Below, one piece after another: positions 3,043 through 44,212 of a stretch of DNA of 64,000 nt; position 1 is the stretch's first letter; each line of letters begins with the position of its first letter. The stretch is from a bacterium. Lineage in GTDB: Bacteria; Patescibacteriota; Patescibacteriia; UBA10025. A program made the translations under genes and the position numbers. Location of the stretch: the NCBI GenBank assembly GCA_021815445.1, contig JAKAGM010000001.1, positions 3,447 through 67,446 on the forward strand, written 5' to 3'. The notes below the pieces were generated by a model, which had not been told where the DNA came from, made no database searches, and saw nothing but the letters and a program-made list of their open reading frames with translations.

Positions 3043-3402
3043 ATGTTCCAATTCCAAAAACTGATCAAAAGTTTCCGCTACGCGTTTCGCGGTCTTTGGT
3101 ACGTGACAAAGCACGAACAGAGTTTCAGGCTGCACCTTATTGCCGCAGCTGTCGTTGTGTTTCTTATGCTGTATTTTCATATCACCATTAAAGAAGCCGT
3201 CATCCTGTCGCTCGTTATAGCTGCTGTCCTGGTTTTGGAGCTCATTAACACCATTTTTGAGAGCCTCGTTGATATGCTCCAGCCGAGGATTCATCATCTT
3301 GCCGAAGTAATAAAGAATATCATGGCGGCCACTGTCCTCATAGCCTCACTTGGAGCGCTCATTATAGGCATTCTCATCTTCGCTCCGTATGTTTTCCATT
3401 AG
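3043..3402 (+). CDS. dgkA: Diacylglycerol / undecaprenol kinase family (DgkA)
   Basis: 119-aa protein with 3 TM helices, ELINT(I)FE motif, classic ybeY-dgkA adjacency. Confidence 0.7.
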   Translation: MFQFQKLIKSFRYAFRGLWYVTKHEQSFRLHLIAAAVVVFLMLYFHITIKEAVILSLVIAAVLVLELINTIFESLVDMLQPRIHHLAEVIKNIMAATVLIASLGALIIGILIFAPYVFH

Positions 3403-3533
3403 TATTCGATCACGAGTATGGCCACTCCGACGCTGAACACAAAATCTGGACACCCGTGCCGCCGTTGCGCGCTTTTGCATATTCATTTATACTGTTAGAT
3501 ATCAACATCTGTGCGTATTAAAGCATTCAGACT

Positions 3534-5977: not shown

Positions 5978-6472
5978 AACCGGAACATTCGACAGCTTTC
6001 ACACATGCACTCCCAACCCGAGAGTGCATTTTGGTAAGCCGACTTTTCCACAAGCAAAGGTGGCGCGATGCGTTTGCAGAGGATCTATCGACAGAGTATC
6101 CTTATTTTATGTAAATATTTTACAGAATATTTTTTTTACTTTACGATGTACATTGCTACCTCATCATCCGATATGCATGGGAGGTTGTCGGCACTCTTTG
6201 CTGTCTGCCTGGATGCTCGGACGACGGCGAAGTGCCTTGGCGGTTCATCTGTTTTCTTCATGTTTCTTGATATAGACCGCCGGAACTCTCCAGGCATCCG
6301 CCCGATAATCAGGAGGCAGGTTTTTATCTCTGCAAAATGCCTCTACAGGGTCCTTGAGCTCCCGAAATGCAGTTATCCACAGACTTTTTGTCTTCAGTAA
6401 AGCAGGAATCTTTTTTCCGACACTTATTTCTTCCAAGAGGTTAGCGCAAAAAGTTTAATAGACCCCAAAATG

Positions 6473-6500
6473 TTGACAAATCTATATATAGTAGTATAAT
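6473..6500 (+). promoter_or_regulatory. Sigma70-like promoter TTGACA-16-TATAAT upstream of nrdR
   Basis: TTGACA at 6473-6478 and TATAAT at 6495-6500, about 40 bp upstream of the nrdR ATG. Confidence 0.45.
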
Positions 6501-6526
6501 GACAGTTAGGGTACTAGATATTGTAC
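6482..6526 (+). promoter_or_regulatory. Two tandem NrdR-box-like palindromes (CTATATATAG; GTACTAGATATTGTAC), centres about 32 bp apart
   Basis: AT-rich 10-16 bp palindromes resembling the NrdR box (acaCwAtATaTwGtgt), with the typical roughly 3-helical-turn tandem spacing. The first sits inside the promoter spacer. Confidence 0.35.
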
Positions 6527-6538
6527 TAAAATCCGATT

Positions 6539-6988
6539 ATGAATTGCTTATCCTGCGGCAAAGAAGACACGAAGGTCACTGATTCACGGGTAGTAAACGA
6601 TGGAATGGCGATTCGGAGACGTCGAGAATGCCAAAAATGCGGTTTCCGGTTCTCTACCTACGAAGAAGTTGAAATTTTAAATCTTTCAGTGGTCAAAAGG
6701 GACGGGGTCCATGAGCCCTATTCACGCGAGAAGGTTGAGCGCGGACTCAAAAAAGCTCTCGAGAAACGGCCGATAACGCAAGAGAAGTTCCGCATGCTCA
6801 TTGCAAACATTGAGCGGGATATTCAGACCGAGGCGAAATCCGACGAGGTGACCAGCAGCCAGATCGGCGAGATTATCATGCGCCATCTCAAAAAAGCCGA
6901 TAAGGTCGCATATATCAGGTTCGCGTCAGTGTATAAATCTTTTGAGGATATCGATTCTTTTAAACAAGAAATTAAAAAAATCACTTAA
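6539..6988 (+). CDS. nrdR: Transcriptional repressor NrdR
   Basis: N-terminal zinc ribbon (CLSCG...CQKCG) plus an ATP-cone domain; directly precedes the ribonucleotide reductase gene. Confidence 0.9.
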   Translation: MNCLSCGKEDTKVTDSRVVNDGMAIRRRRECQKCGFRFSTYEEVEILNLSVVKRDGVHEPYSREKVERGLKKALEKRPITQEKFRMLIANIERDIQTEAKSDEVTSSQIGEIIMRHLKKADKVAYIRFASVYKSFEDIDSFKQEIKKIT

Positions 6989-6999
6989 AAACCATCTTT

Positions 7000-11822: not shown

Positions 11823-11954
11823 CCACAAAGTACTATGGACACCCCAACACCTCAGCCCACCCCACAATCCTCATCAAGCACAATGATGCGAGTCATTTTG
11901 GTAATCATTCTCATTATCGTCGGCGCGGGCGCTTACTTCTGGTGGCAGAAAGGG
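11815..11954 (+). repeat. 140-bp exact direct repeat, copy 1 (RBS region plus first 40 codons of the paralogous anchored proteins)
   Basis: Identical to 13371-13510 as read by eye: attattaaccacaaagtactatggacacc...ggtggcagaaaggg. Confidence 0.85.
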
Positions 11955-13304
11955 CAAGCAAATACGAACAGTGCGAACCTCGTCCTCAATGCCATGAACC
12001 AGAGTACCAATGCGCCCTCCAACATCAATTCGGTTGCCAACGCGAACACCACCTTGAATACCAATATCGCCGTAAATGCCAATACTCCCGCTAATCTCAA
12101 CACGGCAGTAAACACCAATACTGCGGTAAACTCAAATACCAATACCGCAGTGGATACGAGCGGGTGGCTGGCCGAGACGGCGCGATGCAGTCATGAGCCC
12201 GTATCTCAGCAAAAGGAAAGTATCTTAACTGATAACTCTGACTGGCAAGTCATACGGGTATACAGGGGTGAGCTAAAATTCTCGTACGAAGTACCTTCTA
12301 GTGCAACTTTTAATACCGGTCTGGACAGATATACGAAAACTGGGTCAGAAGAGAGGGAAGTAATATCCGAAGTAAATCTAGAAGGTATGGCTATTGATGT
12401 TAGATGGTATAAAAACAACTCTTCGTTTGAGCTGTGGACTAGGGATCATGAGAATGAGATTTATACTTCCTATATTGCCAGCTCACGTGGCGCGGCAATA
12501 TCGGAACCAGAGCAGATAGTTGTTGATGGACGCAAAACAAAAACATATGAAGTTACGAGTCCTTTTGGGTTTAAGGTAATGCTGGTTTTTGTTGAGGATG
12601 GGGATAAAATATATCAAATAGAGGTTCGGGGGCCAGCGGAGAATATGGAAAACTTCAAAGGGGATATCAATAAAGTATTAATGAGTTTTCACTTTGAAAT
12701 CCCTGATCCAGGTGAATTGATATTTACCTATCGCGAAATTGATCTGTCCTTCAGGTATCCTTCATCCGTCGGCACTCCTCAGCTTGCATGGGGTACCCCA
12801 GTGAATAATAAAAATTGGGAGAAAGCTATGATTGAAGTAGGTCAGAAAGGCCAAAGTGCTTTTTCAATAACACGGGAAGCGGATTATTATAGCTCACATG
12901 AAAATGAGTGGCTGTATACTTTTTACGGGAAAGCGGTCGATGCTAAGCAGCCTCTTTCAGATTTAATCCTTTTTATAAGTAGAGATTTCAAAAATATTCT
13001 CGGTATTTCAAATAAATGTGGTTTCGTTGAGATAGTTGAACTAGACCAATATAATACTCAAACAGCGTTAATTTATCGAGCATTTGTTCCTCATCCTGAT
13101 TATAAGGTTGTATTAGCAACTTTCGTGATAAGTACATCTTTTCCTAATCTTGAAAATAGTAATATTGATCCTAATCTTGTGATAGCCAATGATATGCTCA
13201 ATGACATTAAAATGGGTACATTTCAACAAGATATTATTCAGAATTTAGACACATTTCGTGCGATCTTACCAACAATAAAAACTGCAACACCCCTACCCCG
13301 CTGA
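11835..13304 (+). CDS. Membrane-anchored protein, paralog A: conserved N-terminal anchor, N/T-rich linker, AT-rich unique C-terminal domain
   Basis: N-terminus MDTPTPQPTPQSSSSTMMRVILVIILIIVGAGAYFWWQKG is identical to the next gene. The C-terminal about 370 aa are encoded by markedly AT-rich DNA. Confidence 0.55.
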   Translation: MDTPTPQPTPQSSSSTMMRVILVIILIIVGAGAYFWWQKGQANTNSANLVLNAMNQSTNAPSNINSVANANTTLNTNIAVNANTPANLNTAVNTNTAVNSNTNTAVDTSGWLAETARCSHEPVSQQKESILTDNSDWQVIRVYRGELKFSYEVPSSATFNTGLDRYTKTGSEEREVISEVNLEGMAIDVRWYKNNSSFELWTRDHENEIYTSYIASSRGAAISEPEQIVVDGRKTKTYEVTSPFGFKVMLVFVEDGDKIYQIEVRGPAENMENFKGDINKVLMSFHFEIPDPGELIFTYREIDLSFRYPSSVGTPQLAWGTPVNNKNWEKAMIEVGQKGQSAFSITREADYYSSHENEWLYTFYGKAVDAKQPLSDLILFISRDFKNILGISNKCGFVEIVELDQYNTQTALIYRAFVPHPDYKVVLATFVISTSFPNLENSNIDPNLVIANDMLNDIKMGTFQQDIIQNLDTFRAILPTIKTATPLPR

Positions 13305-13370
13305 CTTCGATGGCGACGGCCTTTCTTAATACTTGCTGCTAGGTTACAATGGATATGTAATCTGACAGTA

Positions 13371-13510
13371 ATTATTAACCACAAAGTACTATGGACACCC
13401 CAACACCTCAGCCCACCCCACAATCCTCATCAAGCACAATGATGCGAGTCATTTTGGTAATCATTCTCATTATCGTCGGCGCGGGCGCTTACTTCTGGTG
13501 GCAGAAAGGG
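13371..13510 (+). repeat. 140-bp exact direct repeat, copy 2
   Basis: Identical to 11815-11954. Confidence 0.85.
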
Positions 13511-14113
13511 GATACAAAAATAAACACCGCAAACATTGCCATTAATACTACCAATAGGAACACAAATACCGTCTCCAATGCCAATTCGGCTGTGAATACC
13601 AATGTTGCCTCAAATGTCAACACTGCCGCTAATCTCAACACAGCGGTGAATGTGAATGCGGGGGCAAACTTAAACACCAACGCGGCAGTGGATACGAGCG
13701 GGTGGAAGACGTATGAGAATAGCACGTATGGGTACAACATCAAATATCCAACAGACTGGAAGGTAGTTGAGGCCACGGGGATGCTTACAGAATTCTCGCC
13801 CACGAGCAAGGATTATACCGTCGAGGGCTCGATTGCCTACCCCGTGGGGATAACAGGCTATACAGGCGCTGCATCTGATTTCTTAAGTCAGGTGTCGTCA
13901 GATAAGAAGAGTTCAGTAACCATTAATAATCAGGCTGCCACAAAGGTCATAGGATATTCGAATTCAATCTCTTATGTCTTTTCTAATCAGGCGCGAGTGC
14001 AATATCTGGTAATTGGTCCAAATAGCGCGCTGTTAAATAACGTAGATGTTTCAGATCGATCAACAATAGAATCGATGTTTGAGGCAATGCTTCGGACGTT
14101 CACAATTCAATAG
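13391..14113 (+). CDS. Membrane-anchored protein, paralog B, with a different, shorter C-terminal domain
   Basis: Same first 40 aa as paralog A, N/T-rich linker, shared AVDTSGW junction motif, then an unrelated about 140-aa domain. Confidence 0.55.
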   Translation: MDTPTPQPTPQSSSSTMMRVILVIILIIVGAGAYFWWQKGDTKINTANIAINTTNRNTNTVSNANSAVNTNVASNVNTAANLNTAVNVNAGANLNTNAAVDTSGWKTYENSTYGYNIKYPTDWKVVEATGMLTEFSPTSKDYTVEGSIAYPVGITGYTGAASDFLSQVSSDKKSSVTINNQAATKVIGYSNSISYVFSNQARVQYLVIGPNSALLNNVDVSDRSTIESMFEAMLRTFTIQ

Positions 14114-24030: not shown

Positions 24031-24044
24031 GGAATTAGAGTAGT

Positions 24045-24072
24045 GTATCAGTGTGTTAACACATTGATACAT
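24045..24072 (+). promoter_or_regulatory. Palindromic operator-like site A (TGTATCAGTGTGTTAACACATTGATACA)
   Basis: A 28-bp near-perfect palindrome centred on GTTAAC. It is one of four related sites; this one lies about 165 bp upstream of the small membrane protein gene at 24240. Confidence 0.55.
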
Positions 24073-24733: not shown

Positions 24734-26230
24734 ATGGGTCCGGCAAGAGCTTTTTTGTATATTCTCATCAGTTTTATCCTCGGGGTGGGGACTCGTTCTT
24801 TACTGCCTATCCCAACGGTTTTCGCTTTGACTGTCAGTGTGGTGGCGTTTTTGGGCATGATAATTGCGTTTCGTCACGCGACGGCGCGGTTCATATTTCT
24901 CTGCGCGCTTTTGTTTGCTCTCGGCATATTGCGCTTTAACATTTCAGAACCGCGCAATGATTCTACTGCCATTCGGTCGCTGAATAATAAGGGAACTGTG
25001 ACATTTATGGGTGTTGTTGTGCAGGAGCCTGATGTTAGGCAAGACAGCGTTAAGTTGACGGTCTCGGTGCGAAAGGTCCAACTCAAAAAACGTGATGCCG
25101 CCTACCGTGGCAAAGTTCTTGTAACAGCTCCGCTATATCCTGAGATTGCATATGGAGAGGCGCTTCTCATAACCTGTACGTTCAAATCTCCGGAGCCTGT
25201 CCAGGACTTTGCCTATGACCAGTACCTGAGCCGATTCGGCGTGTATTCTCTGTGTTCTTTCCCCCGCATCAAACGTGTCTCATCAGGGCAGGGGAATCCG
25301 ATCATGAACAGTATTCTCAACGTTAAGCGTTTATTCACCAACCGCATCCAAATGGCCGTACCTGAGCCGGAAGCGTCGTTTCTCGGGGGACTTGTGCTTG
25401 GTGCAAAACGCTCAATACCTCAAAAACTTATGGATGCATTCGCTCGGACAGGGACGACGCACGTCGTGGCGTTGTCAGGGTACAATATTACCATCATCGC
25501 AGTATGTATCCAGAATCTCTGCCGAGCTCTGCGAATTCCAAAGCGTAAAGGGTTCTGGGTGGCGCTTGGAGTGATTGCCATATTCATCCTTATGACCGGA
25601 GCTCAGGCATCAGTCGTGCGGGCGGGGATTATGGGTGGTCTTACTTTGCTTGCCAACCGCCTCGGCCGGCTTTCACGGATTACCAACGCGCTCGTACTTG
25701 CCGCATTTTGCATGTTGGCCATCAACCCGCGCATCCTTGCTTTTGACGCCGGCTTCCAGTTATCTTTTTTGTCCACTCTCGGGCTCGTGTACTGTTCGCC
25801 GCTCATAGAGAAATGGTTCGTTAAAGTTCCCGATGTCCTCGGGATGAGGTCGAGCCTTGTTGCCACTCTTTCGGCAATGATGTTCACGCTACCGCTGATT
25901 GTCGCGACTTTCGGGAGGATTTCGCTTATTGCGCCGCTTGTGAACGCGCTCATACTTCCGTTTGTCCCTCTTGCCATGGGTGTCGGATTTGCTACGGGTA
26001 TTGCGGCGTTTGTCTGGCTGCCGCTCGGGAAACTGTGCGGCTGGCTCGCCTGGCTGGTACTACGTTCAATACTTTTGGTTATCGAAACAGGATCATCACT
26101 GCCTTTCACATCATATTCGCTGTCACATATTCACTGGGCGTTGATTATTGCATGCTATGCCGGTATTATTTTTGTCCTTTGGAAAAATAAAAAAAGACCG
26201 CGGGGCGATATCGTGCGCCCTGCGGTATGA
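24734..26230 (+). CDS. comEC: DNA internalisation competence protein ComEC/Rec2 (DUF4131 plus competence channel domain), lacking the C-terminal MBL domain
   Basis: Multi-TM protein with motif ARTGTTHVVALSGYNITII, typical of the ComEC competence domain. Confidence 0.75.
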   Translation: MGPARAFLYILISFILGVGTRSLLPIPTVFALTVSVVAFLGMIIAFRHATARFIFLCALLFALGILRFNISEPRNDSTAIRSLNNKGTVTFMGVVVQEPDVRQDSVKLTVSVRKVQLKKRDAAYRGKVLVTAPLYPEIAYGEALLITCTFKSPEPVQDFAYDQYLSRFGVYSLCSFPRIKRVSSGQGNPIMNSILNVKRLFTNRIQMAVPEPEASFLGGLVLGAKRSIPQKLMDAFARTGTTHVVALSGYNITIIAVCIQNLCRALRIPKRKGFWVALGVIAIFILMTGAQASVVRAGIMGGLTLLANRLGRLSRITNALVLAAFCMLAINPRILAFDAGFQLSFLSTLGLVYCSPLIEKWFVKVPDVLGMRSSLVATLSAMMFTLPLIVATFGRISLIAPLVNALILPFVPLAMGVGFATGIAAFVWLPLGKLCGWLAWLVLRSILLVIETGSSLPFTSYSLSHIHWALIIACYAGIIFVLWKNKKRPRGDIVRPAV

Positions 26231-26260: not shown

Positions 26261-27190
26261 TCAGGTTTTCTCGGCCCAGATGGCCTCGGCTTCCTCAAGA
26301 AGTTGGATTCCTTCATTCTCGGGGCGCTGGAAGATATTGCGTCCAATGATGCTTCCAAACCCTCCGCCATCTCTGATGGCACGGATTTCCGAGAGAACCG
26401 CGGCCTTGTCTTTTGCTTCGCCCCCCGAGAAGAGGACGATCCTCCGGCCGCCGAAAGCGGACTGTATAACGTGTTTGATACTGTCGACGAGCGCAGTATG
26501 AGGGATGTCCAGATCTTCGTAGAGTTTCGATCCCTCTTGCTTACCGGCGAAGTACAGACTTCCTCGCGGCGGCTTCACCTTGACGATGTGCGCCCCAAGC
26601 TGGCAGGCGATGTGCGCGGCGTAGGCGATCACATCCGTAGCCTCCTGTTTCGCCTTGGTGTCGAGGTTGCCGCCTCGCGGATACGACCATACGACGACGA
26701 CCAGCCCGGCTGCCTTGGCCTCTGCGGCGATCTCGCGAAGCTGCTCATACATTTCACGCGAACGCGGAGATCCGGGGTAGATCGTAAATCCCACGGCGCG
26801 ACAGCCCAGGCGCAGCGCATCTTGGACTGAAGCCGTTACGGCAGGGCACGGATCGCCGGTGGAGAGCAGGTCGCTGTTGTTGAGTTTGAGTATCAAGGGG
26901 ATTCCCCCTTTGAATTCTTCGAATCCGGCTTCCAGAGCACCGAGAGGAGCAGCGTGGGCGTTACACCCCGCCTCGATGGCAAGATGGAAATGGTATCTGG
27001 GGTCGTATCCTGCCGGGTTCTTTGCGAAACTGGCTCCCGGACCATGCTCAAAACCCTGGTCAACGGGCAGGATGACCAATTTGCCGGTGCCCGCCAGCCT
27101 GCCGTGGTTGAGAATCTGTGCAAGATTCGCCAGCACTTGCTTATTTTCTCCCCGGTACCACGAGAGAATTTTATCAACTGGTTCTGACAT
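26261..27190 (-). CDS. fbaB: Class I fructose-bisphosphate aldolase, DhnA/FbaB (archaeal) type
   Basis: Motif ILPVDQGFEHGP and TIM-barrel length (about 309 aa from the ATG at 27190 with AGGAGG RBS). Confidence 0.6.
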   Translation of the reverse strand: MSEPVDKILSWYRGENKQVLANLAQILNHGRLAGTGKLVILPVDQGFEHGPGASFAKNPAGYDPRYHFHLAIEAGCNAHAAPLGALEAGFEEFKGGIPLILKLNNSDLLSTGDPCPAVTASVQDALRLGCRAVGFTIYPGSPRSREMYEQLREIAAEAKAAGLVVVVWSYPRGGNLDTKAKQEATDVIAYAAHIACQLGAHIVKVKPPRGSLYFAGKQEGSKLYEDLDIPHTALVDSIKHVIQSAFGGRRIVLFSGGEAKDKAAVLSEIRAIRDGGGFGSIIGRNIFQRPENEGIQLLEEAEAIWAEKT

Positions 27191-27339
27191 ACTCTTCCTC
27201 CTGTTACGTGGTGGTTTTGGTGAGCGATGTTGTTTCATGTTATTGCGAGATCACTCTATCATGTACCGTCTTGAGCGTCAATATAAGAAAAACGACCGCG
27301 GATTAATGCGGTCGTGACGTATTCAGAGTGTGCCGAGGG

Positions 27340-28293
27340 TCAGCAGTTGTTCCTTCCAAACTGATGTTTGGTTTCCATGAAGCGGATAGTGCCTGAAGCC
27401 GAGCGTCCCATGATTGAGTAGGTCACGTCTCCGTGAGGAGTGGTGCGTACACCGCGGAGCAGATCGCCGTCAGTGACCCCGGTGGCAGCAAAGATCACAT
27501 CCTCACCGCTGGCCAATTCCTTTGCCGTGTAGATCCGATCGGGATCCGTGATGCCCATTTCACGCGCTCGTTCTTTCTGGGCATCATCTTTCCACTGGAG
27601 CTGGCCGAGTATCTCGCCGCCCATGCAGCGAAGCGCCGCGGCGGCAAGCACCCCTTCAGGCGCGGCACCGATACCCATGAGCACATCAACGGGACTGTCA
27701 GGGAGCGCTGTCGCTATAGCCCCTGCGACGTCGCCGTCCTGGATGAAGTGGATGCGGGCGCCCGTAGAGCGGATCTCAGCCACCAGATCGTTATGTCGAT
27801 CGCGCTTCAAGACGACCACTACCAGGTCGCGCATCGGTTTACCAAGGGCCTTGGAAATCCTCTGAAGGTTCCAGGTGGGGGACTCTCGCAGATTGATGAC
27901 TCCGCATGCTTTGGGCCCGACAGCAAGTTTCCGCATGTAGCCGTCGGGAGCATGGAGCAGAGTGCCGGGATTGCCTGCGGCTATCACGGACATTGCGTTC
28001 TCGCCGCCCTCGGCAGTCCGGTCCGTACACTCGAGAGGATCGACAGCGATGTCGAGCTCGAGGCCATGTCCGGATCCAACCTTCTCGTCGATGAAGAGCA
28101 TGGGAGCTTCATCACGCTCTCCCTCGCCGATGACGATAGTGCCTCGGATGTCGATGAAGTTAAATTCACTCCGCATGGCTTCGACAGCGGCACTATCAGC
28201 GGCATGTTTATCGCCCCGACCAATCCAACCCGCGGCGGCTCGTGCAGCCGCCTCGGTGACTCTGACAAATTCAAGTGCAATGTTTTTATCCAT
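27340..28293 (-). CDS. glpX: Fructose-1,6-bisphosphatase class II (GlpX)
   Basis: N-terminus MDKNIALEFVRVTEAAARAAAGWIGRGDKHAADSAAVEAMR closely resembles E. coli GlpX. The same aacaggagg RBS as fbaB is present. Confidence 0.85.
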   Translation of the reverse strand: MDKNIALEFVRVTEAAARAAAGWIGRGDKHAADSAAVEAMRSEFNFIDIRGTIVIGEGERDEAPMLFIDEKVGSGHGLELDIAVDPLECTDRTAEGGENAMSVIAAGNPGTLLHAPDGYMRKLAVGPKACGVINLRESPTWNLQRISKALGKPMRDLVVVVLKRDRHNDLVAEIRSTGARIHFIQDGDVAGAIATALPDSPVDVLMGIGAAPEGVLAAAALRCMGGEILGQLQWKDDAQKERAREMGITDPDRIYTAKELASGEDVIFAATGVTDGDLLRGVRTTPHGDVTYSIMGRSASGTIRFMETKHQFGRNNC

Positions 28294-28394
28294 TCCTTTG
28301 CCTCCTGTTCTCGTGTTTGTAGGTTTGTTTTCCATAGTTCAGTCGTATTAAAATCATCTCATTTTTCGAAAGGTTTTGTCAACATCTGTAATGT

Positions 28395-29243
28395 ATGCGC
28401 TATATAAAAAAATACATTTACCTTGTGCCTATCGTCATACTGTTAATGCTCGCAGTAGGTTTTTTCGTATTTCGAGGCGACGGAATGCTCGTCGTCACCT
28501 TCCTCGATGTCGACCAAGGAGACAGTATCCTTATCCAAAGCCCTTCAAGCGCCACTGTCCTTATCGATTGCGGGCCGGACAGATCAGTGCTCTCGGAGCT
28601 CGGCCGCAGTGTGCCGTTTTATGACCGGACAATTGATCTTCTCGTCATCACGCATCCCGATGCCGACCATATCACCGGATGCATTGATGTCGTCGAGCGG
28701 TATCGCATTTCACGGGTGCTGATCACAGGCATTGCCTCAACAAGCAACCTGTGGTCAATTTTGGACGATGCCATAGAACGAAAACACATTCCCGCCACTG
28801 TAGCGCGGGCTGGTGAATCATTTATGTTTGATAGGGCTGTGCTGCGCGTCCTGTTTCCTCTTGAGGACGTTTCCGGCCAAACGTTTAAAAACACGAACGA
28901 CAGCTCGATAGTTGCGATGCTTGAGTATGGCGATGAAAGATTCCTTTTCACGGGCGATGCGAATGTCAGTGTTGAGCAGAAACTTCTCCAAGTGGGAACC
29001 AACGTGTCCGCCCAAGTGCTCAAAGTCGGGCATCACGGGAGCAGGACATCGTCATCACGGGAGTTTCTCGAAAAGGTGCATCCGGCTTATGCCGTCATCC
29101 AAGTAGGTGAGAAAAATAAATACGGACATCCGACTCAGGATGTTCTCGAAAGGTTGCGGCACATTGGAGCCAAAGTGTTGAGAACGGACAGAGACGGACG
29201 GTTAGAGATGAAGAGTGATGGAAGACAGGTGCGGGTTAAGTAG
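28395..29243 (+). CDS. Membrane-anchored MBL-fold metallo-hydrolase resembling the ComEC C-terminal beta-lactamase-like domain
   Basis: Motifs LDVDQGDSILI, ITHPDADHITG and KVGHHGSRTSS, encoded separately from comEC. Confidence 0.65.
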   Translation: MRYIKKYIYLVPIVILLMLAVGFFVFRGDGMLVVTFLDVDQGDSILIQSPSSATVLIDCGPDRSVLSELGRSVPFYDRTIDLLVITHPDADHITGCIDVVERYRISRVLITGIASTSNLWSILDDAIERKHIPATVARAGESFMFDRAVLRVLFPLEDVSGQTFKNTNDSSIVAMLEYGDERFLFTGDANVSVEQKLLQVGTNVSAQVLKVGHHGSRTSSSREFLEKVHPAYAVIQVGEKNKYGHPTQDVLERLRHIGAKVLRTDRDGRLEMKSDGRQVRVK

Positions 29244-29253
29244 ACTCTGAACT

Positions 29254-29784
29254 ATGTCGCGGCCCTTTCACTTACACGTAGAAGAAGGATATTATTTTCT
29301 TACTGCTCGGACTCAGCAAGGATACCCGTTTTTACATAGCCAAAATGCCAAAAGAATTCTCTTAGGATCAATTGAACAATCGGTTCAACAATGCACGATT
29401 AAACTTTTTGCGTGGGTAATAATGGATAATCATTACCACATTCTTATCGGTACCGATAGGGGGCAAAGAATACAACAGCTTATGCAGCTGATTCATGGAA
29501 GAAGCTCAAGACGTCTACGAAAGTTTAATCAAACGGAGGGCAGACTGATCAGTCTGCCCTCCACGGGGTGGAAAGTCTGGCAAAATTACTGGGACATATG
29601 TATCCGTGATGAGGCAGATTTCTTTACCCACCTGAACTATATCCACCACAACCCGGTCAAGCACGGATTAGTGAGAAGGATGGAGGACTACCCATTTTCA
29701 AGCTATAGACAATACGTTCAAACAGAGGGTTCTCAGTGGCTCGACAGCTCCTTTGAGACTTATCCCGTCATTGACTTTACATAG
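29254..29784 (+). mobile_element. IS200/IS605-family Y1 transposase / REP-associated tyrosine transposase (RAYT)-like gene
   Basis: HYHIL (HxH) motif plus C-terminal ...YIHHNPVKHGLV...DYPFSSYRQY (catalytic Tyr region) in an AT-rich segment. No flanking IS ends were identified. Confidence 0.6.
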
Positions 29785-29906
29785 TAGTAACCTTTCAGCT
29801 GCCTGACCATTACGTCCGCCTTGACAAAAGTTTACAGTTCATGTACGGTATGGGGAATTTCTAAATCACAAACTGTTCATCACATTCAACAGAAAGAGAG
29901 GTTTGT

Positions 29907-30974
29907 ATGGCCGCGGATCCAAGCGCTGAAAACACAGGATCCCGCCCGGGGCGACTCAGTGCGCTTCGAGATTTTACTTCGCGTTTTAAACCCACATTCA
30001 AAGCCGATGATAAGGCAATGCTCTTACTTCGGCTGGTCCTCTTCGTCGCGTGGGTCGGAGCCACCCTGGCTCTAGCTTTCACGCACCCGTTTCTGGCCGT
30101 CACCTTGTTTGGCACGGTTATGTTCTTCTTCGGCACCGTCAAGGTGGACGAAGGCAACCGTGGACTTCCATCTCTGCTTGGCGGGCGCAAACCCGTAAGT
30201 TTGCCTGAGGGCCTGAAGCCAGTCCTACCATTTTTGATCACGGTGCGCAGTATTGATATCCGTGATCATCTGACGATGGTAACTGTCAGGCATCAATCCG
30301 CGGACGGTTTCTTTCATGATGTGCAGGTTGCCGTGCAGTGGCATGCCCCTCGACGAAATGATGAGTCTGGTCGATGGTTCGACGGTCGTCAGCTTCTGGC
30401 GTTCGACAACCTTGAACCAGGGGTTGCTGAGCGGCAAGTGATCGCGCTGACCGAACAGGCTACAGAGCCCACCATAGCTTCCTATGCCCACGATCAGCTG
30501 TCCGGCATTAATGTCTACCAGTTGGTGGACAAGCTCAAGGATGCTCTGGAAAATGGGGTCAGCCTTGACCTGGGCGCAATCTTCTCCCGGGACTCGGCAA
30601 TCGCCCTGAAAACCCGGGCGGACATGGCTCGCCAAATCCGCGATGTCATTTCCGTCCAGCTGAAGTCTGTCGGGATTGTTGTCTCGATGGTCGCTATGGC
30701 CGTCGTGAATCCCGACAAGACCATTGTTGACCTCCTGGAGGAAATCCAAAGGCAGTTTGTCGAGAAGTCCTCCCAGGCGCTCGATACCGCGGGTGACATT
30801 CAGAAAGCGCTTCAGTTTGTCGAGGCGGCTAAGAGGCGCGGCCAGGAAGTTACGCTGCTTGACGCGTATCGAACGATTCGCGACCTCGATAACCGGGAAG
30901 TTGCAGCGAAGCAGGGCCTCTCAAGTGCCCTCATTGAAAGTCTTGCGAGGGCGGTCAGCAGTCAGGCAGCATGA
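29907..30974 (+). CDS. SPFH/Band-7 domain protein (stomatin/flotillin-like) with N-terminal membrane anchor
   Basis: TM region then a Band-7-like core and a C-terminal coiled coil (EEIQRQFVEKSSQALDTAGDIQKALQFVEAAKRRGQE). The start codon is ambiguous. Confidence 0.5.
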   Translation: MAADPSAENTGSRPGRLSALRDFTSRFKPTFKADDKAMLLLRLVLFVAWVGATLALAFTHPFLAVTLFGTVMFFFGTVKVDEGNRGLPSLLGGRKPVSLPEGLKPVLPFLITVRSIDIRDHLTMVTVRHQSADGFFHDVQVAVQWHAPRRNDESGRWFDGRQLLAFDNLEPGVAERQVIALTEQATEPTIASYAHDQLSGINVYQLVDKLKDALENGVSLDLGAIFSRDSAIALKTRADMARQIRDVISVQLKSVGIVVSMVAMAVVNPDKTIVDLLEEIQRQFVEKSSQALDTAGDIQKALQFVEAAKRRGQEVTLLDAYRTIRDLDNREVAAKQGLSSALIESLARAVSSQAA

Positions 30975-31431
30975 TCTTTCAACTTCTTCGGGTGTGAGCG
31001 GCCCAAGGGTGTTCACCTCCCACGGACTCGTGTATTTTGCGGGTCCTTTTTTTGTTCAAGTGGGATTACGAATCCCACCTACACGTGAGGCGGTCTTGAC
31101 AAGATCATGGTAAATGTGGTAAGGTGGGGTGCTTTTTATGATGCACAAAGTGTGTCTTAGGAAGCTTGTCAGGAGGGTAGTATTTGAATGCTCTTTGACA
31201 ATTGAATGAACAATCAACTTAAGTTCTCATAACTCATAGCTCACCCCAGATGCGGGTGGAAAGGAGTAATTCCTTATGAACGCGCATGCGTTCAAAGTGT
31301 CTTTTGGCACTTGGTGCGCCAGGGCACCCGCAAATTCCTGGACGTTTCCACTTCCAACGCGGGAGGTGAGCGATGGTTGAGCAGTATCTTGGAATGGCGC
31401 AAGTTGTTGAAGCGGGAGGAGGTGATCCTTC

Positions 31432-32355
31432 GTGAGGGAAAATCCAGCTTTACCCTTCGGCACATTAATTCGATGGGGAATTTCTGCTGCCAGACGGCAC
31501 AGCGAAGGTGAATTTAAGGATGGCATCCACTTCCTACATGAAGCCGACCACATGCTCTTTGCTTTTTTGCGAGAGCTAACCGACCGCACACAAAGTCCAG
31601 AACTTCGAGCACTTTTGAATTCCGTCGTCGAAGAACTGGGCCATTCCATTGGAGACAGCGAAATGGTACAGCAGCGGAGAGACAGAGGCAGGGGACAGCC
31701 CCAAGGAGCCTCTGTACAGAAAGATCGTCAACAGAATGTTAAAGTTGGCGATTCAGCACGAGGCAGAGTAAAGGTGAACGATCTTTCGGGCGCCGGCGGA
31801 GACCGTCTCAGACATATTCTGCAAGTAATTGATACCAAGGATGCGGAGCGAGCTTCATTGGTTTGCGAGAAGCTTGATGAGCACAGTCAATCGGGGCTGC
31901 TGCATCTTGGTCAAAGTCTGATCGCAGCGGGTGGTACGGATAATGAACAAAAGGACCTGCTGCTGAGACTCCTCGGCATCGGTGTTGGTGAAGAAAAACA
32001 AGCACACTCGAACACCGAAGTGATTACGAGAGCCGCGGAAGTTCTTTCGTGGCTTTCACCCGAGACTAAGCTGAAACTTCACGCAGCTAAGGCAAGCAAT
32101 GAAGCGCTCGCTGCTTTGCATCCTCTGGGAGAAGATCGCGTGCGCAAGTTGCTTGACGAAATGGCGCAAGATCTGGAGTTTCTCGAACAGCTCGTTGCGG
32201 CTAAACACGGGAGAATCCAGAAGGGTTTTTCTTGGATAGGCCGCATGTTTCAAAACTTGCGCGGAACACCGGCAAGCACAGATCAAGTGGAGGCCGCGCG
32301 CGCAAGCAACCTTGCAGCATGGGCAGCGGTCGAAGCACAACGCAATGCGAGTTAA
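31432..32355 (+). CDS. Hypothetical all-helical protein
   Basis: Long ORF with no recognisable motif; start uncertain. Confidence 0.35.
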   Translation: MRENPALPFGTLIRWGISAARRHSEGEFKDGIHFLHEADHMLFAFLRELTDRTQSPELRALLNSVVEELGHSIGDSEMVQQRRDRGRGQPQGASVQKDRQQNVKVGDSARGRVKVNDLSGAGGDRLRHILQVIDTKDAERASLVCEKLDEHSQSGLLHLGQSLIAAGGTDNEQKDLLLRLLGIGVGEEKQAHSNTEVITRAAEVLSWLSPETKLKLHAAKASNEALAALHPLGEDRVRKLLDEMAQDLEFLEQLVAAKHGRIQKGFSWIGRMFQNLRGTPASTDQVEAARASNLAAWAAVEAQRNAS

Positions 32356-32409
32356 CTGCAACCAATCCCCGGTGACGACAATTGTCCCGGTGCAAACTGG
32401 AGAAATACA

Positions 32410-33023
32410 TGGCTGATAAAAGTGATGAAAGGGAAAAGCGTCCCGACAAGGACGAAAGGCCGAAATCAACCGCCGAAAAGGTGGCTGAGATAGCGGCTGA
32501 TCCTGTCACAGGGATGCTCGAAGGATTCGCCCAGGCGTTCCGCGAAATCGTGATGGACAGATCCGTCGCGGAGCTTGTGGTTCTGTGGCTGATGGGACTC
32601 GTGACTACGAAGATTGTAGTTAACGGGATCTCAAACTTCATTCGCAATGATGCAAACCTCGTGGACATGAAACACCAGCACAAGATGGAGCTTCTTGGCC
32701 GCCTCACCGGGAACACTGAATGGTTCCTGAAGCAGTGCAAGAAGACTCTGATTGAATGCAAGGACTTCGTGTTCGACAGAGCGAGTAAGTATTACCAGTT
32801 CCTCAAGACCAAGGACACCGAAAGTGCGGCATGGATCACGACCCACGCAGATCGTTTTGCAGCGGATGCGGAACGGATCCGTTTGGGGAGGAAGCAGGTA
32901 AGCTTTCTTCACCCACTCAGTGTGTTCAACCGGAGATTGGTATGGCGTCGTCGCTTGTGGCCAATCTCAATCCAGACGATCACCGTACCAACAACAGCAG
33001 TCAATGCTCAGGAGGTAAACTAG
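32410..33023 (+). CDS. Hypothetical protein with one predicted TM helix
   Basis: GGAG RBS before the ATG at 32410; charged N-terminus (MADKSDEREKRPDKDERPK); TM at VAELVVLWLMGLVTT. Confidence 0.4.
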
Positions 33024-33024
33024 C

Positions 33025-34995
33025 ATGTCGGATGCAAATTCGACTTCAACTGGCCCGGAAGACGGCGCTGATACCATTTCTAAAAAGCGCGGTCTCTTCA
33101 AGTGGCTGTTACACTTGTTTGACAAGGAAAAGATGGATCCGGCAGCTCGTGGCCTCCTCAACGAGATTGACACTGAGGAAGGCACCAAACCGGTATGGCT
33201 CCTATGGGGTGCGTTGGCGGGAATGTTCTTCGCCTTCACTCAAACCGGCCGGTCTGGCGTCGACGCTGGCTACCAGTTCGTGAATCGCGAGCTGCAGCGT
33301 TTTCTGGATTTCACAAAACGCATCGCAGTGTTTACGGTATGGTGCGTGCTTCCAGGAGCGTTCTCGTACGTATTCTGGCTCTTGATGGCGACATGGCTGC
33401 AATTCGATCCGTCGTTTTGGCTGTTCTGGTCGGGGATCCTGGTTGCTCTCGGATGGACTGTGTTCTTCACCTATTTGGTGGTCATCCAGAGCATCATTCG
33501 GCTTCTCAAAGTTCAGGAAGACCTGTCGACAATCGACACCAAAACTCCGGAAGGAAAGAGGCTGAAGGAAGAGCGACGTGCGGCACGTTTTGCTCTCGCT
33601 GGCGCGTTCTCGAAATCGATCCTGTGGTGTTGCCTCTATATCCTGTTCGGTATGCTGTTGCGGCCGTGGGAACATCTCCTCACGTTCGTTATCTTCAACC
33701 TTTCCCTCTTTGTGACGCTCTTGACGAAAGACTCGTCACAGCGGGGGCGTGAAGGTAAGTGGACGATCGGACATCTCATGGAAGCTGTGCAAATCGGCAG
33801 CATAGCCGCGGTATGCATTTTCCTGACGATTCACTACTGGAATGTTGGTCTTCGGCGCGCGGGTGGTCCCCAGGTTGCAAAAGTCCTCGATGCCCTTGCT
33901 GACGTGGGTATTGTCACTTCGGACCAAGTTCTCGGTTGGGCACCGGTGAAGAGACAGGTCGACTCACTGAAAGTCGTCCGTTCAAAAGCAGAAGATCGGA
34001 ACAAGGACGGTTTTGTCGATGCTCTCGATACCGCATTTGCCGTCATGGATATCGACGGTCGCGGCGGGATGCCAAATCTCGCCGATCTGAGAGCTTTCCC
34101 GCTGTATTTCAGGTCAACCGCTGACACCACCATCAGTGAGCTCGGTGACGGTACGATGGATACCACAATTGTACGTGGCCCGCGCGAGTGGACTCTTCAT
34201 GCCACTGTCGGACCCTACAAGCAGCCGGTCGGCGACTTCAACGGCGATTTCCATGTCAACATGGAGGACTCCCTAGATTTCGCAAATTATCTGCTTATGG
34301 GTGGACACCCGCCAATCTACCAGACCGATCCGGATATGATCCCCGCCGGCGACAGACCTCTCACATCCGAGCCTCCAAAGAAGGACACTCTCGTGCTTTA
34401 CGGATCCTTGGAGAAACCTGAGGCTCGCTATCCGTCAGCCGATGTGAGGGATCGCGCTGACAGAATCCGCCAGCTCGCGGAACGCCAAGTAGAGGGAGAA
34501 CAGCAGCGTGCGGTGGTCGTACCGTCGGTATCTGAAGTGCCGATGGCATACTCACCGCAAACGGTGAATTACAACGTGGATGCGAAGAATCCCGAGCCCC
34601 TCTCCATAGGGCGATTCCCCAGCGGTTCTGTGATTCACATCCTGGCCACGGGCAAGATCAGGTACGATAATTTACTCGCCCAAAGGTTCACGATCGGTCC
34701 CATCGGAGATCCCGAGCAGGGGCCGGTATGGAAGGCCAATGTTGCCGGCGAAGACTTACCGATCTGGCATGGAGCACTATGCATCGTGGTCCCGCCAGAT
34801 AAGTCCATCAAAGGATTCGTACCCCCGTCGCAACACATGCCCTTGAATTGGATAAGGGATGGTGGCGGCGTATGGATTGCCGACTTCCCTGTCTCAATCG
34901 ACGGGGAGTATGAGCTTGTCGTCGCAGACGGAGGATACGGCGACAATGACGGGTATTACGTGGCTACGGTCAAGTGGTCACGTCAGTCAAGTTAG
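33025..34995 (+). CDS. Large hypothetical membrane protein (about 7 TM N-terminal half plus about 330-aa soluble C-terminal domain)
   Basis: Tightly coupled to the previous gene (1-nt gap). No known motif. Confidence 0.45.
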   Translation: MSDANSTSTGPEDGADTISKKRGLFKWLLHLFDKEKMDPAARGLLNEIDTEEGTKPVWLLWGALAGMFFAFTQTGRSGVDAGYQFVNRELQRFLDFTKRIAVFTVWCVLPGAFSYVFWLLMATWLQFDPSFWLFWSGILVALGWTVFFTYLVVIQSIIRLLKVQEDLSTIDTKTPEGKRLKEERRAARFALAGAFSKSILWCCLYILFGMLLRPWEHLLTFVIFNLSLFVTLLTKDSSQRGREGKWTIGHLMEAVQIGSIAAVCIFLTIHYWNVGLRRAGGPQVAKVLDALADVGIVTSDQVLGWAPVKRQVDSLKVVRSKAEDRNKDGFVDALDTAFAVMDIDGRGGMPNLADLRAFPLYFRSTADTTISELGDGTMDTTIVRGPREWTLHATVGPYKQPVGDFNGDFHVNMEDSLDFANYLLMGGHPPIYQTDPDMIPAGDRPLTSEPPKKDTLVLYGSLEKPEARYPSADVRDRADRIRQLAERQVEGEQQRAVVVPSVSEVPMAYSPQTVNYNVDAKNPEPLSIGRFPSGSVIHILATGKIRYDNLLAQRFTIGPIGDPEQGPVWKANVAGEDLPIWHGALCIVVPPDKSIKGFVPPSQHMPLNWIRDGGGVWIADFPVSIDGEYELVVADGGYGDNDGYYVATVKWSRQSS

Positions 34996-35161
34996 TTGAT
35001 TGTGTCATTTCAATTGTTCAACGGGGGACGAGTCTTTACGATTCGCCCCCTTTTTATTTAGCGGCATCAGATGTTTGCATAATGGGTCATGCAGACATTT
35101 TTTAAGTTGAAATAAATTTTCGAGCGGCGATAGCATGTAAAAAACTTGGAAGAATTCTCAC

Positions 35162-35190
35162 TTGAAATAATATGCGTTCCATGGTATACT
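35162..35190 (+). promoter_or_regulatory. Sigma70-like promoter TTGAAA-17-TATACT upstream of the NHL/FG-GAP protein gene
   Basis: TTGAAA 35162-35167, TATACT 35185-35190, AT-rich UP-like region upstream. Confidence 0.4.
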
Positions 35191-35224
35191 GAGTCAGGAA
35201 ATAAAAAACCAAAACCATTATCCC

Positions 35225-39318: not shown

Positions 39319-39348
39319 GTGTTCCGATGTGTTAACACACTAGTACAT
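39319..39348 (+). promoter_or_regulatory. Palindromic operator-like site C (GTGTTCCGATGTGTTAACACACTAGTACAT)
   Basis: Same palindrome family; about 160 bp upstream of malQ. Confidence 0.5.
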
Positions 39349-44182: not shown

Positions 44183-44212
44183 GTGTATCAATGTGTTAAC
44201 ACACTAATACAC
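44183..44212 (+). promoter_or_regulatory. Palindromic operator-like site D (GTGTATCAATGTGTTAACACACTAATACAC)
   Basis: The best-formed copy of the palindrome; ends 20 bp upstream of the TrpR-like gene start, so probably autoregulatory. Confidence 0.55.

Follow-up and report, generated by a model that had tools for sequence, protein, structure and literature searches.

The DNA analysed here is a 64-kb stretch (the window) of the genome of a Patescibacteria/Parcubacteria (CPR, ultra-small) bacterium, and the interval of interest within it consists of three neighbouring, separate units and not of a single mobile or defence module. These are a ComEC-nuclease (MBL) gene with a domesticated RAYT, a monocistronic SPFH gene and, as the actual system, an operon composed of a leader and three genes termed X, Y and Big. 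All three units sit within an extended stretch of synteny that one small clade of Parcubacteria has inherited vertically. The explanation that we favour, with modest confidence, is that the leader-X-Y-Big unit specifies a clade-specific surface lectin/adhesin complex.

The preliminary description of this region had recognised a transposase gene followed by a 5.1-kb co-directional block, interpreted as a dedicated SPFH-associated membrane machine next to a mobile element. Its observations were confirmed in part, and its interpretation was also supported in part. The five ORFs lie where it had placed them, all on the + strand, and the SPFH gene precedes the three unknown genes in most loci; the 5.1-kb block is interrupted by the terminator-like hairpin behind the SPFH gene and by the promoter-like leader (Table 1).

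Table 1. Features of the locus (positions in the window).
Feature	Position	Strand	Evidence
MBL-fold gene, stand-alone, C-terminal nuclease domain of split ComEC/Rec2	28395..29243	+	NCBIfam ComEC_Rec2, Pfam Lactamase_B
RAYT (REP-associated tyrosine transposase-like Y1/HUH nuclease), 176 aa	29254..29784	+	NF047646, Pfam Y1_Tnp
Perfect palindrome, 14+14 nt, within RAYT ORF	29535..29562	.	palindrome scan
Promoter-like site of SPFH, TTGACA-N17-TACGGT	29821..29849	+	pattern evidence only
SPFH/Band-7 protein, 355 aa, N-terminal hydrophobic hairpin	29907..30974	+	Pfam Band_7
Intrinsic-terminator-like hairpin and T-run, 50 nt past SPFH stop codon	31024..31056	+	pattern match
Conserved 5' leader of X-Y-Big, ~340 nt	31096..31431	+	alignments of relatives
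Promoter-like box P1 in leader	31096-31125	+	pattern match
Second TTGACA box in leader	31195-31200	+	pattern match
Hairpin and strong SD in leader	31240-31266	+	alignments of relatives
Leader mini-ORF, 34 codons, MNAHAFKVSFGTWCARAPANSW...	31276..31380	+	alignments of relatives
Gene X, 307 aa, soluble, predicted helical, first operon gene	31432..32355	+	positional homologs in 8 loci
Gene Y, 204 aa, one TM segment	32409..33023	+	homologs in all loci
Gene Big, 656-aa polytopic membrane protein	33025..34995	+	family of 7 representatives
Big TM core, ~residues 54-270	33184-33834	+	topology analysis
Big dockerin/EF-hand region, residues 321-435	33985-34329	+	Pfam Dockerin_1, F-hand loops
Big LecA/PA-IL-type lectin domain, residues 511-656	34555-34992	+	Foldseek, hhalign
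Terminator-like GC-rich hairpin and T-run closing operon	35023..35059	+	pattern match

Eight loci with their context were compared (the window, L004, L007, L008, L010, L011, L012 and L013); as all of them belong to one lineage, co-occurrence statistics are weak. Promoters and terminators were called by pattern match, and the leader alignments A2, A3 and A5 comprise 4, 5 and 8 loci, respectively. Synteny spans RF1 and ComEC, then the gluconeogenesis genes, then NHL and GH77; the operon is not in an island. The neighbours encode surface proteins: an NHL/FG-GAP protein (1108 aa), a LamG protein and, in the relatives, an 11-TM protein of ~531 aa. The gene for the latter follows Big in all relatives and is missing from the window, where any function depending on it would be altered.

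The MBL gene covers positions 440-663 of the 663 of the NCBIfam ComEC_Rec2 model; the other ComEC part is a gene at 24734-26230, matching positions 83-383. The gene located 10 nt downstream of the MBL gene is a RAYT, as had been proposed: it scores 126.8 bits with NCBIfam REP_Tyr_transpos (NF047646; cutoff 80) and matches Pfam Y1_Tnp, the transpos_IS200 model yielding only 23 bits against a cutoff of 55. The family alignment shows both its HUH motif (NHYHIL) and its Tyr motif (LNYIHHNP) to be intact. The AT-rich patch previously noticed is real (GC 0.44 for the gene vs 0.52 for the locus); as the RAYT-like gene is low in GC at every locus, this composition characterises the gene family and is no sign of recent import. 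A RAYT-like gene directly follows the MBL gene, at 1-122 nt, in six of seven related loci (window, L007, L008, L010, L011 and L013; L012 has none), in genomes whose housekeeping proteins are merely 45-77% identical, and two very divergent RAYT types (~21% identity) fill the same slot in different genomes. No IS ends, terminal hairpins, REPs or other repeats were found in the flanks of the gene, and no duplicated copies of it. From the conserved position, without IS ends or flanking REPs, we infer that the RAYT is domesticated and vertically inherited; it is no mobility marker, stands outside the downstream operon and is unrelated to the X-Y-Big system. RAYTs have already been described as housekeeping-like in behaviour, with vertical inheritance and stable position (PMC5581495). 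The window gene resembles them in these respects, in both motifs, in passing the NCBIfam equivalog model and in being present as a single copy in the 64 kb, and differs in lacking flanking REP/REPIN sequences and in its fixed place after the ComEC nuclease-domain gene. The palindrome within its ORF is unique and the longest perfect one in the 64 kb; it corresponds to a 9-codon in-frame insertion with respect to L010, L011 and L013, peculiar to this genome and seen in two independent assemblies.

The second unit was correctly assigned to the SPFH family (Pfam Band_7, 33.1 bits vs a gathering score of 23.6). Residues 38-56 and 62-80 of the protein form hydrophobic segments, and the closest solved relative of its family profile is HflC (E 1.6e-4). 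Sequence patterns suggest that it is a transcription unit of its own. A site equivalent to its promoter-like site, TTGACA(A)-N17-TAAGGT/TACGGT, is found upstream of SPFH in L004, L007, L010 and L012. The terminator-like hairpin comprises 9 pairs, then TTTTTTTGTT, and has counterparts in L004 (13 pairs) and L012, others being visible for L007 and L010 in alignment A2. A clear SPFH ortholog directly precedes the operon in five of the eight loci; the gene is absent from L008, and its slot contains an unrelated gene of 277 aa in L013 and a very divergent Band_7 gene in L011, X-Y-Big and the leader being kept in each case. With SPFH/Band-7 scaffolds (HflK/C, stomatin, flotillin) the protein shares a Band_7 match above the Pfam threshold, an N-terminal membrane anchor and a site beside membrane-protein genes. 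It differs from them in having no NfeD or protease partner gene and in being a predicted separate transcription unit that is missing or replaced in 3/8 loci; unlike in HflK/C, the predicted two-helix hairpin would place its SPFH domain in the cytoplasm.

The three genes of the third unit were rightly considered a tightly spaced unit: all eight loci share the order X-Y-Big, neighbouring genes being separated by -8 to 53 nt, and the gap between Y and Big is indeed 1 nt in the window. Taking into account the DNA alignment with the relatives' start codons and the N-terminal homology to L011, gene X starts at GTG 31432, preceded by GGAGGTGAT, whereas gene callers choose ATG 31552 (267 aa). X has zero TM segments, gave no match with Pfam, NCBIfam, PADLOC or PHROG, and is the least conserved of the set, with positional homologs in all eight loci at 16-32% identity. 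For gene Y, the most likely start is ATG 32409 (MADK..., as in the relatives) rather than 32382; in its product, a charged N-terminus is followed by a single TM segment (residues 47-65) and then by a C-terminal part that is helical, and its homologs share 18-37% identity. Apart from these homologs, neither relatives nor a predicted fold could be obtained for X and Y. Spacing and co-conservation within one syntenic clade suggest that both may form a complex with Big.

Big is polytopic, as first described, but the seven TM segments then counted are not clear, the family averaging ~6 (5-7 per member); its soluble domain exists as well, C-terminal and of ~386 rather than 330 aa. The TM core includes a conserved cytoplasmic loop, KDSSxRGRxGKWTIGH. 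Over eight members, odd loops contain 123 K+R vs 46 in even loops, an excess that, hydropathy being the only basis for the topology, would put the C-terminal region on the outer face. The TM part and region 271-510 were modelled with pLDDT <50. Lack of recognisable motifs, claimed for all three genes, is wrong for Big, in which three dockerin/EF-hand loops and a lectin domain of the LecA type were recognised. Pfam Dockerin_1 matches 6/8 family members (L010 at 39 bits); Big of the window reaches 21.4 bits, just under the cutoff of 22.9, and the profile matches PDB 4dh2 (E 4e-4). The repeated F-hand Ca2+ loops, D-x-N/D-x-D-G-x-V/I-x-x-x-D, are those of cellulosomal type I dockerins. Big differs from these in the number of its loops (three), in a long insert that separates the last two, and in having neither an identified cohesin partner nor a cellulosome context.

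The C-terminal head of Big has a LecA-type fold. All top 10 Foldseek matches are LecA, PllA or EclA-N (E 3e-6 to 1e-4; target TM 0.61-0.66), and hhalign against LecA gives 89% probability; with Pfam PA-IL no match was reached. The head keeps the Ca2+ loop Y-G-[N/D]-N-x-G-x-F, in which LecA N108 is invariant, and the galactose-contacting residues H50 and Q53 of LecA are not conserved. In LecA, D100 and N107 mediate the binding of Ca2+ and galactose (PMC8048816). Big probably displays a Ca2+-dependent LecA-type lectin domain at the cell surface. The known PA-IL/LecA lectins, among them P. aeruginosa LecA and Photorhabdus PllA, occur as small soluble tetramers that stand alone or, with Enterobacter EclA, as tandem lectins; the head described here, in contrast, is the C-terminal part of a polytopic membrane protein of 600-750 aa with dockerin-like loops, does not conserve the H50/Q53 contacts and belongs to a CPR bacterium. 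In cultivated Patescibacteria, host binding has been suggested to be based on glycans/lectins (PMC11623550).

The operon is fast-evolving and limited to a small CPR group. Compared with the window proteins, Big of the relatives is 23-39% identical, X no more than 32% and Y 29-37%, vs 74-77% for RF1, 60-68% for NHL and 57-64% for GH77 in the flanks, and the Big family has only 7 representatives among 1.84 billion clusters. Within Big, mean identity is 43% in the dockerin region and 26% in the lectin head; after the former, TM4-6 and the KDSSxRGRxGKWTIGH loop are best conserved. Instead of being widely conserved in scattered contexts, the genes are confined to the clade and keep this location throughout; co-location alone therefore cannot prove functional linkage.

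In the proposed lectin/adhesin complex, about six helices would anchor Big in the membrane, its outer face bearing the conserved Ca2+-binding dockerin-like module and the variable head. The head may bind a galactoside-type or other glycan, either on a partner/host cell or on the cell's own envelope, and a fast-changing ligand could account for the fast evolution of the operon. The dockerin-like module and the cytoplasmic loop would tie the complex to bitopic Y and cytoplasmic X; SPFH, which is dispensable, may scaffold it.

That SPFH, X, Y and Big form one dedicated machine, the core of the original interpretation, we consider rather unlikely. The SPFH ring or cage would corral Big and Y in a microdomain, as HflK/C does with FtsH, and the co-directional SPFH gene in front of the operon (a divergent Band_7 gene in L011), its membrane hairpin and the relationship to HflC speak for it. 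In a region that is syntenic throughout, this adjacency weighs little; SPFH comes with a promoter-like site and a terminator-like hairpin of its own, L008 and L013 keep operon and leader intact without it, and both proteins diverge out of step (L010 and the window share 76% identity in SPFH, 23% in Big).

Less plausible still is that X-Y-Big is a transmembrane sensor and not an adhesin, the head detecting an external glycan and signalling through TM4-6 and the KDSS loop to X as the output. The conservation of these parts of Big and the gene for a cytoplasmic partner in every locus agree with such a role; X, however, shows no DNA-binding, kinase, cyclase or other output domain in Pfam, NCBIfam or PADLOC and is the least conserved gene, and a linked regulator gene is absent. 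That the block arrived with the IS200-like gene, as a mobile or accessory module or one for anti-phage defence, is highly improbable. The adjoining low-GC gene of the Y1-transposase family, the rapid divergence of X, Y and Big out of step with the flanks and their restriction to one lineage might suggest it, but PADLOC is blank for all five proteins and PHROG for X, Y and Big, IS ends, duplicated copies and flanking repeats are missing, low GC marks the RAYT-like gene at every locus, and the position between housekeeping genes is the same in all relatives. We regard this possibility as largely refuted.

The leader, which the favoured lectin/adhesin operon keeps at all eight loci, including the SPFH-less L008, also contains a 5' stem-loop, a mini-ORF and the SD of gene X. 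Rfam yielded no matching family; RNAalifold support for a structure is weak, with fold z-scores of -1.9 and -2.0. As a side lead, the conserved mini-ORF carries a SecM/RAPP-like motif, C-x-R-A-(G/P), encoded by an invariant hairpin-forming 16-mer (31313-31328). Every indel between the ATG and the motif is a multiple of 3, and one subclade uses AGG for the Arg, the other CGA. The motif reads R-A-G-P in L004 and L007, R-A-P-x in the window, L008, L010 and L011, and RAGF in L012; L013 is without it. RAGP, RAPA, RAPS and RAPD are listed as motifs of SecM/ApcA/ApdA-type arrest peptides (PMC10987492), which the mini-ORF resembles in its upstream location, strong SD and RAGP or RAP-x motif. It differs from them in that the ORFs are short (22-44 codons), with the motif at codons 10-18 and not C-terminal, have no N-terminal signal or TM segment, and precede genes that are neither Sec nor YidC. 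As the motif bases also form the conserved hairpin, the constraint may act on the RNA.

The five ORFs reported in the preliminary description of the interval are all present on the + strand, and the single nucleotide separating Y and Big, the last two genes of the X-Y-Big operon, is real. Y most likely starts at ATG 32409 (MADK...). For X, alignment with the ATG starts of the relatives places the start at GTG 31432, behind GGAGGTGAT, which yields a protein of 307 aa; homology of residues 1-40 to the protein from L011, one of the relatives' loci, supports this start. Public gene calls put it instead at ATG 31552 (267 aa). No above-threshold match was found for X, Y or Big in Pfam, NCBIfam, PADLOC or PHROGs. 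Word-indexed homology searches retrieved three relatives for Big, one for the SPFH gene and, for X, only X itself. As these searches were nearly empty, relatives were recovered via their loci and by exhaustive profile search. Run against 1.84 billion cluster representatives, the HMM found seven full-length Big members, the remaining matches being short dockerin-loop matches only, and a metagenome scan recovered just the L007 contig, already known. The window belongs to a Patescibacteria/Parcubacteria genome, and the nearest named relatives of Big belong to entries labelled "Parcubacteria/Patescibacteria group bacterium". The distribution of Big is extremely restricted.

Contigs of the Big relatives, plus one SPFH relative, provided eight loci with context (the window, L004, L007, L008, L010, L011, L012 and L013), all of one clade. 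Their common gene order is RF1, ComEC, gluconeogenesis genes on the opposite strand, MBL, (RAYT), (SPFH), X, Y and Big, followed by a ~531-aa 11-TM protein, NHL/FG-GAP, (LamG) and GH77. Because one long gene order is common to the loci, the block flagged previously is not an island, and with synteny this long within the clade, co-location alone cannot prove function. Gaps between X, Y and Big range from -8 to 53 nt. Promoters and terminators were called by pattern match, which detected a strong terminator after Big in the window. The interval is thus composed of three units (MBL+RAYT; SPFH; leader-X-Y-Big), not of one system. In every relative, a conserved protein of ~531-559 aa with ~11 TM helices is encoded directly after Big. 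Neither Pfam nor PDB yielded a match for this family, and a GT-C identity considered for it was dropped. The whole 64 kb of the window contains no copy of the gene; there, the stretch after Big (34996-35224) has the terminator, and the NHL/FG-GAP gene comes next.

Coordinates of the features in the window and in the loci of its relatives
Locus	Feature	Coordinates	Strand	Description
Window	ComEC part	24734-26230		ComEC/Rec2 model positions 83-383
Window	Gluconeogenic genes	26261-28335	-	DeoC-type aldolase + GlpX
Window	MBL gene	28395-29243	+	ComEC/Rec2 model positions 440-663
Window	RAYT gene	29254-29784	+	
Window	Palindrome within RAYT ORF	29535-29562		14+14 nt, perfect
Window	SPFH gene	29907-30974	+	
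Window	Hairpin 3' of SPFH	31024-31056		9 bp + T-run
Window	Leader	31096-31431	+	5' of X
Window	Mini-ORF	31276-31380	+	within leader
Window	Mini-ORF motif bases	31313-31328		16-mer
Window	X	31432-32355	+	
Window	Y	32409-33023	+	
Window	Big	33025-34995	+	656 aa
Window	~30-nt extragenic palindrome	24043-24072		
Window	~30-nt extragenic palindrome	~39319-39348		
Window	~30-nt extragenic palindrome	44183-44212		
L004	Leader counterpart	1681-1981		
L007	Leader counterpart	8224-8524		
L008	Leader counterpart	8067-8375		
L010	Leader counterpart	3151-3463		
L011	Leader counterpart	8155-8480		
L012	Leader counterpart	7867-8154		
L013	Leader counterpart	8182-8462		
L004	~531-aa-type gene after Big	5942-7537		
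L007	~531-aa-type gene after Big	12382-13977		
L008	~531-aa-type gene after Big	11976-13583		
L010	~531-aa-type gene after Big	6927-8606		
L011	~531-aa-type gene after Big	12161-13756		
L012	~531-aa-type gene after Big	11885-13480		
L011	Gene in SPFH slot	6867-8006		379 aa
L013	Gene in SPFH slot	7300-8133		277 aa
L008	Gluconeogenic gene	5415-6563	-	single FBPase_3 (class V FBPase family)
L013	Gluconeogenic genes	3724-4737		class I "Glycolytic" aldolase + GlpX

The three proteins of the operon had been described as lacking recognizable motifs. For Big this proved wrong, since it carries both dockerin loops and a LecA-type lectin domain. Its C-terminal region contains three dockerin/EF-hand-type Ca2+ loops, which were aligned to dockerins. 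The Pfam model Dockerin_1 scores 21.4 bits on the window protein, just under the cutoff of 22.9, and 39.3 bits on the L010 homolog; six of the eight members are matched at E<=0.01, and a PDB dockerin profile matches the family with an E value of 4e-4. Cohesin has no Pfam match among the genes adjoining Big. For the membrane part, family-averaged hydropathy predicts six TM segments. K+R counts over the eight members (123 in odd loops vs 46 in even loops) suggest that the highly conserved loop KDSSxRGRxGKWTIGH is cytoplasmic, and that the C-terminal region of ~386 aa would lie outside.

The predicted structure of a domain of Big has the beta-sandwich fold (about 120 aa) of PA-IL/LecA lectins. 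Aligned by hhalign to a LecA sequence in which all eight published residue numbers checked were reproduced, the family domain matches with 89% probability. No PA-IL Pfam match was obtained for Big, phmmer returned nothing and the PDB profile match only reached an E value of 0.22. LecA coordinates Ca2+ and galactose via D100, N107 and the Tyr36 backbone (PMC8048816). The Ca2+-loop motif Y-G-[N/D]-N-x-G-x-F is kept in the Big family; the equivalent of N108 is invariant, that of N107 is either D or N, and all members have an acidic residue 5-7 positions upstream which is not column-aligned with D100. H50 and Q53, which contact galactose in LecA, are not conserved, both positions being variable across the family. 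In sum, Big is anchored in the membrane and bears a LecA-type lectin head, which would bind a glycan. PA-IL/LecA lectins are small, soluble and related to virulence, whereas Big extends their fold to an integral-membrane architecture.

The operon also diverges in a manner different from that of its surroundings. Judged by housekeeping genes, all relatives stand at much the same distance from the window (identities of 74-77% for RF1, 46-54% for ComEC, 60-68% for NHL and 57-64% for GH77). Identity to the window is 23-39% for Big and 29-37% for Y; for X it is at most 32% or undetectable. Divergence is moreover out of step between genes: L010 is the closest locus in SPFH (76%) and MBL (58%) and the most distant in Big (23%). 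Conservation along Big peaks in the dockerin-like region (mean identity 43%; 76% between the window and L004); TM4-6 ranks second at 35%, and the variable parts are the lectin head, with 26%, and the linker, with 21%. Such a pairing of a conserved stalk or assembly part with a variable head that would bind the ligand is what may be expected of a surface recognition protein.

Little is known of the means by which Parcubacteria and other CPR bacteria that have not been cultivated recognize partner cells and attach to them, and a clade-specific, fast-evolving, membrane-anchored LecA-type lectin provides a concrete, testable candidate for partner recognition. We lean towards X-Y-Big being a clade-specific surface lectin/adhesin complex, in which the outside lectin head of Big would bind a glycan carried by a partner cell or by the cell's own envelope, with X (predicted cytoplasmic) and Y (predicted bitopic) as putative obligate partners. 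The genes neighboring the operon encode large surface proteins. For cultivated Saccharibacteria, glycan/lectin-mediated host binding has been proposed, implicating lectin-like pilins as well as glycans of the host cell wall (PMC11623550). With X placed in the cytoplasm, a glycan sensor having X as its output is also conceivable, and we consider it quite improbable. Another reading, that of a dedicated four-gene membrane machine organized by the SPFH protein, stems from the preliminary description. The SPFH/Band-7 identity itself is confirmed: Pfam Band_7 scores 33.1 bits (threshold 23.6), and two hydrophobic stretches (residues 38-56 and 62-80) provide an N-terminal membrane anchor. Typical SPFH systems have NfeD, or else a client protease or channel, as operon partner; the window gene does not, and X, Y and Big match no NfeD, FtsH or channel family in Pfam or NCBIfam. 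The SPFH gene has its own promoter-like site (TTGACA-N17-TACGGT) and is closed by a hairpin with a T-run; terminators also follow it in L004 (13 bp) and L012. Its slot is variable, with clear orthologs in five loci (39-76% identity) and an empty slot in L008. Where the whole region is syntenic, an adjoining SPFH gene is no evidence of such a machine, which we regard as unlikely. The slot gene of L011 is very divergent, its match covers no more than the C-terminal portion of Band_7, and it has no predicted TM; that of L013 has no detectable SPFH-family similarity. A special regulatory motif common to SPFH and the operon was also considered and rejected: TTGACAA-N17-TAnnnT recurs at other genes and is hence just a general promoter.

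An accessory or defence-like module next to a mobile-element gene had been suggested. The transposase gene is not an IS200/IS605 element but a RAYT, scoring 126.8 bits with NCBIfam REP_Tyr_transpos (NF047646; cutoff 80) and only 23.2 bits with transpos_IS200 (cutoff 55). Its Y1/HUH core motifs, NHYHIL (HUH) and LNYIHHNP (catalytic Tyr), align with those of the relatives. Inspection of the flanks (29244-29253 and 29785-29906) revealed no notable hairpin, repeated 12-mer or REP/REPIN, nor were flanking inverted repeats, terminal hairpins or second copies found around the gene, which occurs once in the 64-kb window. Only 10 nt separate it from the upstream MBL gene, and a RAYT-like gene lies 1-122 nt after MBL in six of seven loci, L012 being the one without. 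Two types occupy this position, one in the window, L010, L011 and L013 (mutual identity about 50%) and another in L007 and L008 (about 21% identity to the former), both keeping the HUH and Tyr motifs. Such a conserved position, with no IS ends, agrees with the housekeeping-like behavior published for RAYTs, among which a strong association with REPs is limited to groups 2 and 3 (PMC5581495); a RAYT beside the gene block is therefore no evidence of mobility. The RAYT-like gene is 4-13 GC points below its locus in every genome that has it here (the window, L007, L008, L010, L011 and L013; for example, 0.44 vs 0.52 in the window and 0.35 vs 0.45 in L011). The AT-rich patch noted before is thus real, but it is a property of the gene family and not a sign of recent import. 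As to defence, PADLOC component models gave noise-level matches only (E at least 0.003) and PHROGs matched none of X, Y and Big, and that part of the reading was rejected. We consider a mobile or defence module highly improbable.

The operon of the presumed surface complex begins with a leader of ~280-340 nt before X, conserved in all eight loci and situated directly after the RAYT-like gene in L008. It contains two TTGACA boxes, a 5' stem-loop and a hairpin with a strong SD (GAAAGGAG), behind which every locus has a mini-ORF of 22-44 codons. Seven of the eight mini-ORFs include a C-x-R-A-(G/P) motif at codons 10-18 (L013 does not): WCARAP in the window, L010 and L011, RCARAP in L008, ACFRAGP in L004 and L007, and TCLRAGF in L012. 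By class, this corresponds to RAGP in two loci, RAPA/S/D/L in four, RAGF in one and none in one. RAGP is the SecM motif, and RAPA, RAPS and RAPD are among the ApcA-cluster variants (PMC10987492). The motif resembles those of RAPP-like arrest peptides (SecM, ApcA, ApdA/P, RQH), which are encoded just upstream of the gene they regulate. The mini-ORF differs from classical arrest peptides in that it is very short, has no hydrophobic N-terminus or signal and its motif is not C-terminal; moreover, the genes that follow are X, Y and Big, whereas Sec or YidC follow RAPP-like monitoring peptides.

Every indel between the ATG and the motif preserves the reading frame (multiples of three), and the motif Arg is AGG in one subclade and CGA in the other, so that translation of the mini-ORF is favored. 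The bases encoding the motif also make up a hairpin, GGTGC-GCCAGG-GCACC, which is invariant in four diverged loci. This lack of synonymous variation points to a constraint at the RNA or DNA level and speaks against a classical arrest peptide; the element under constraint may hence be the peptide or the RNA. A riboswitch or structured leader RNA was considered and the evidence found insufficient, the leader having no Rfam match, a weak RNAalifold consensus and z-scores of about -2. It is a rather doubtful extension of the lectin/adhesin reading that X-Y-Big is a previously undescribed host/partner-glycan recognition apparatus at the surface of this clade, made of a polytopic membrane protein with a variable LecA-type head on a conserved dockerin-like stalk and of two obligate partners, its expression being set by a new, very short SecM/RAPP-like arrest leader unable to act as force sensor.

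Other observations concern the surroundings of the operon. As two genes of the window match separate parts of the ComEC model, ComEC is split. The same arrangement, with a channel gene (DUF4131 + Competence) and a separate MBL nuclease-domain gene, occurs in L007, L008 and L010-L013, opposite-strand gluconeogenesis genes separating both parts. A functional link of DNA-uptake processing with the RAYT, a HUH ssDNA nuclease, is conceivable. The gluconeogenic pair shows non-orthologous replacement between loci at one syntenic position.

Of all perfect palindromes in the 64 kb, the longest (GGAGGGCAGACTGA/TCAGTCTGCCCTCC) lies in the RAYT ORF of the window. It corresponds to nine codons inserted in frame between the HUH and Tyr motifs, which the closest RAYTs lack. 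The insertion is unique to the window's genome, was found in two independent assemblies and has the appearance of an inverted copy of the 14 nt just before. A different palindrome of ~30 nt, GTGTATCA-n-TGTGTTAACACA-n-TGATACAC, has three intergenic copies in the window (0 expected by chance) and none in the relatives' loci. GTAG precedes two of the three copies, and E. coli REPs are likewise preceded by GTAG. This sequence may be the REP of the window's genome and a substrate of the RAYT; alternatively, it could be the operator of a regulator.
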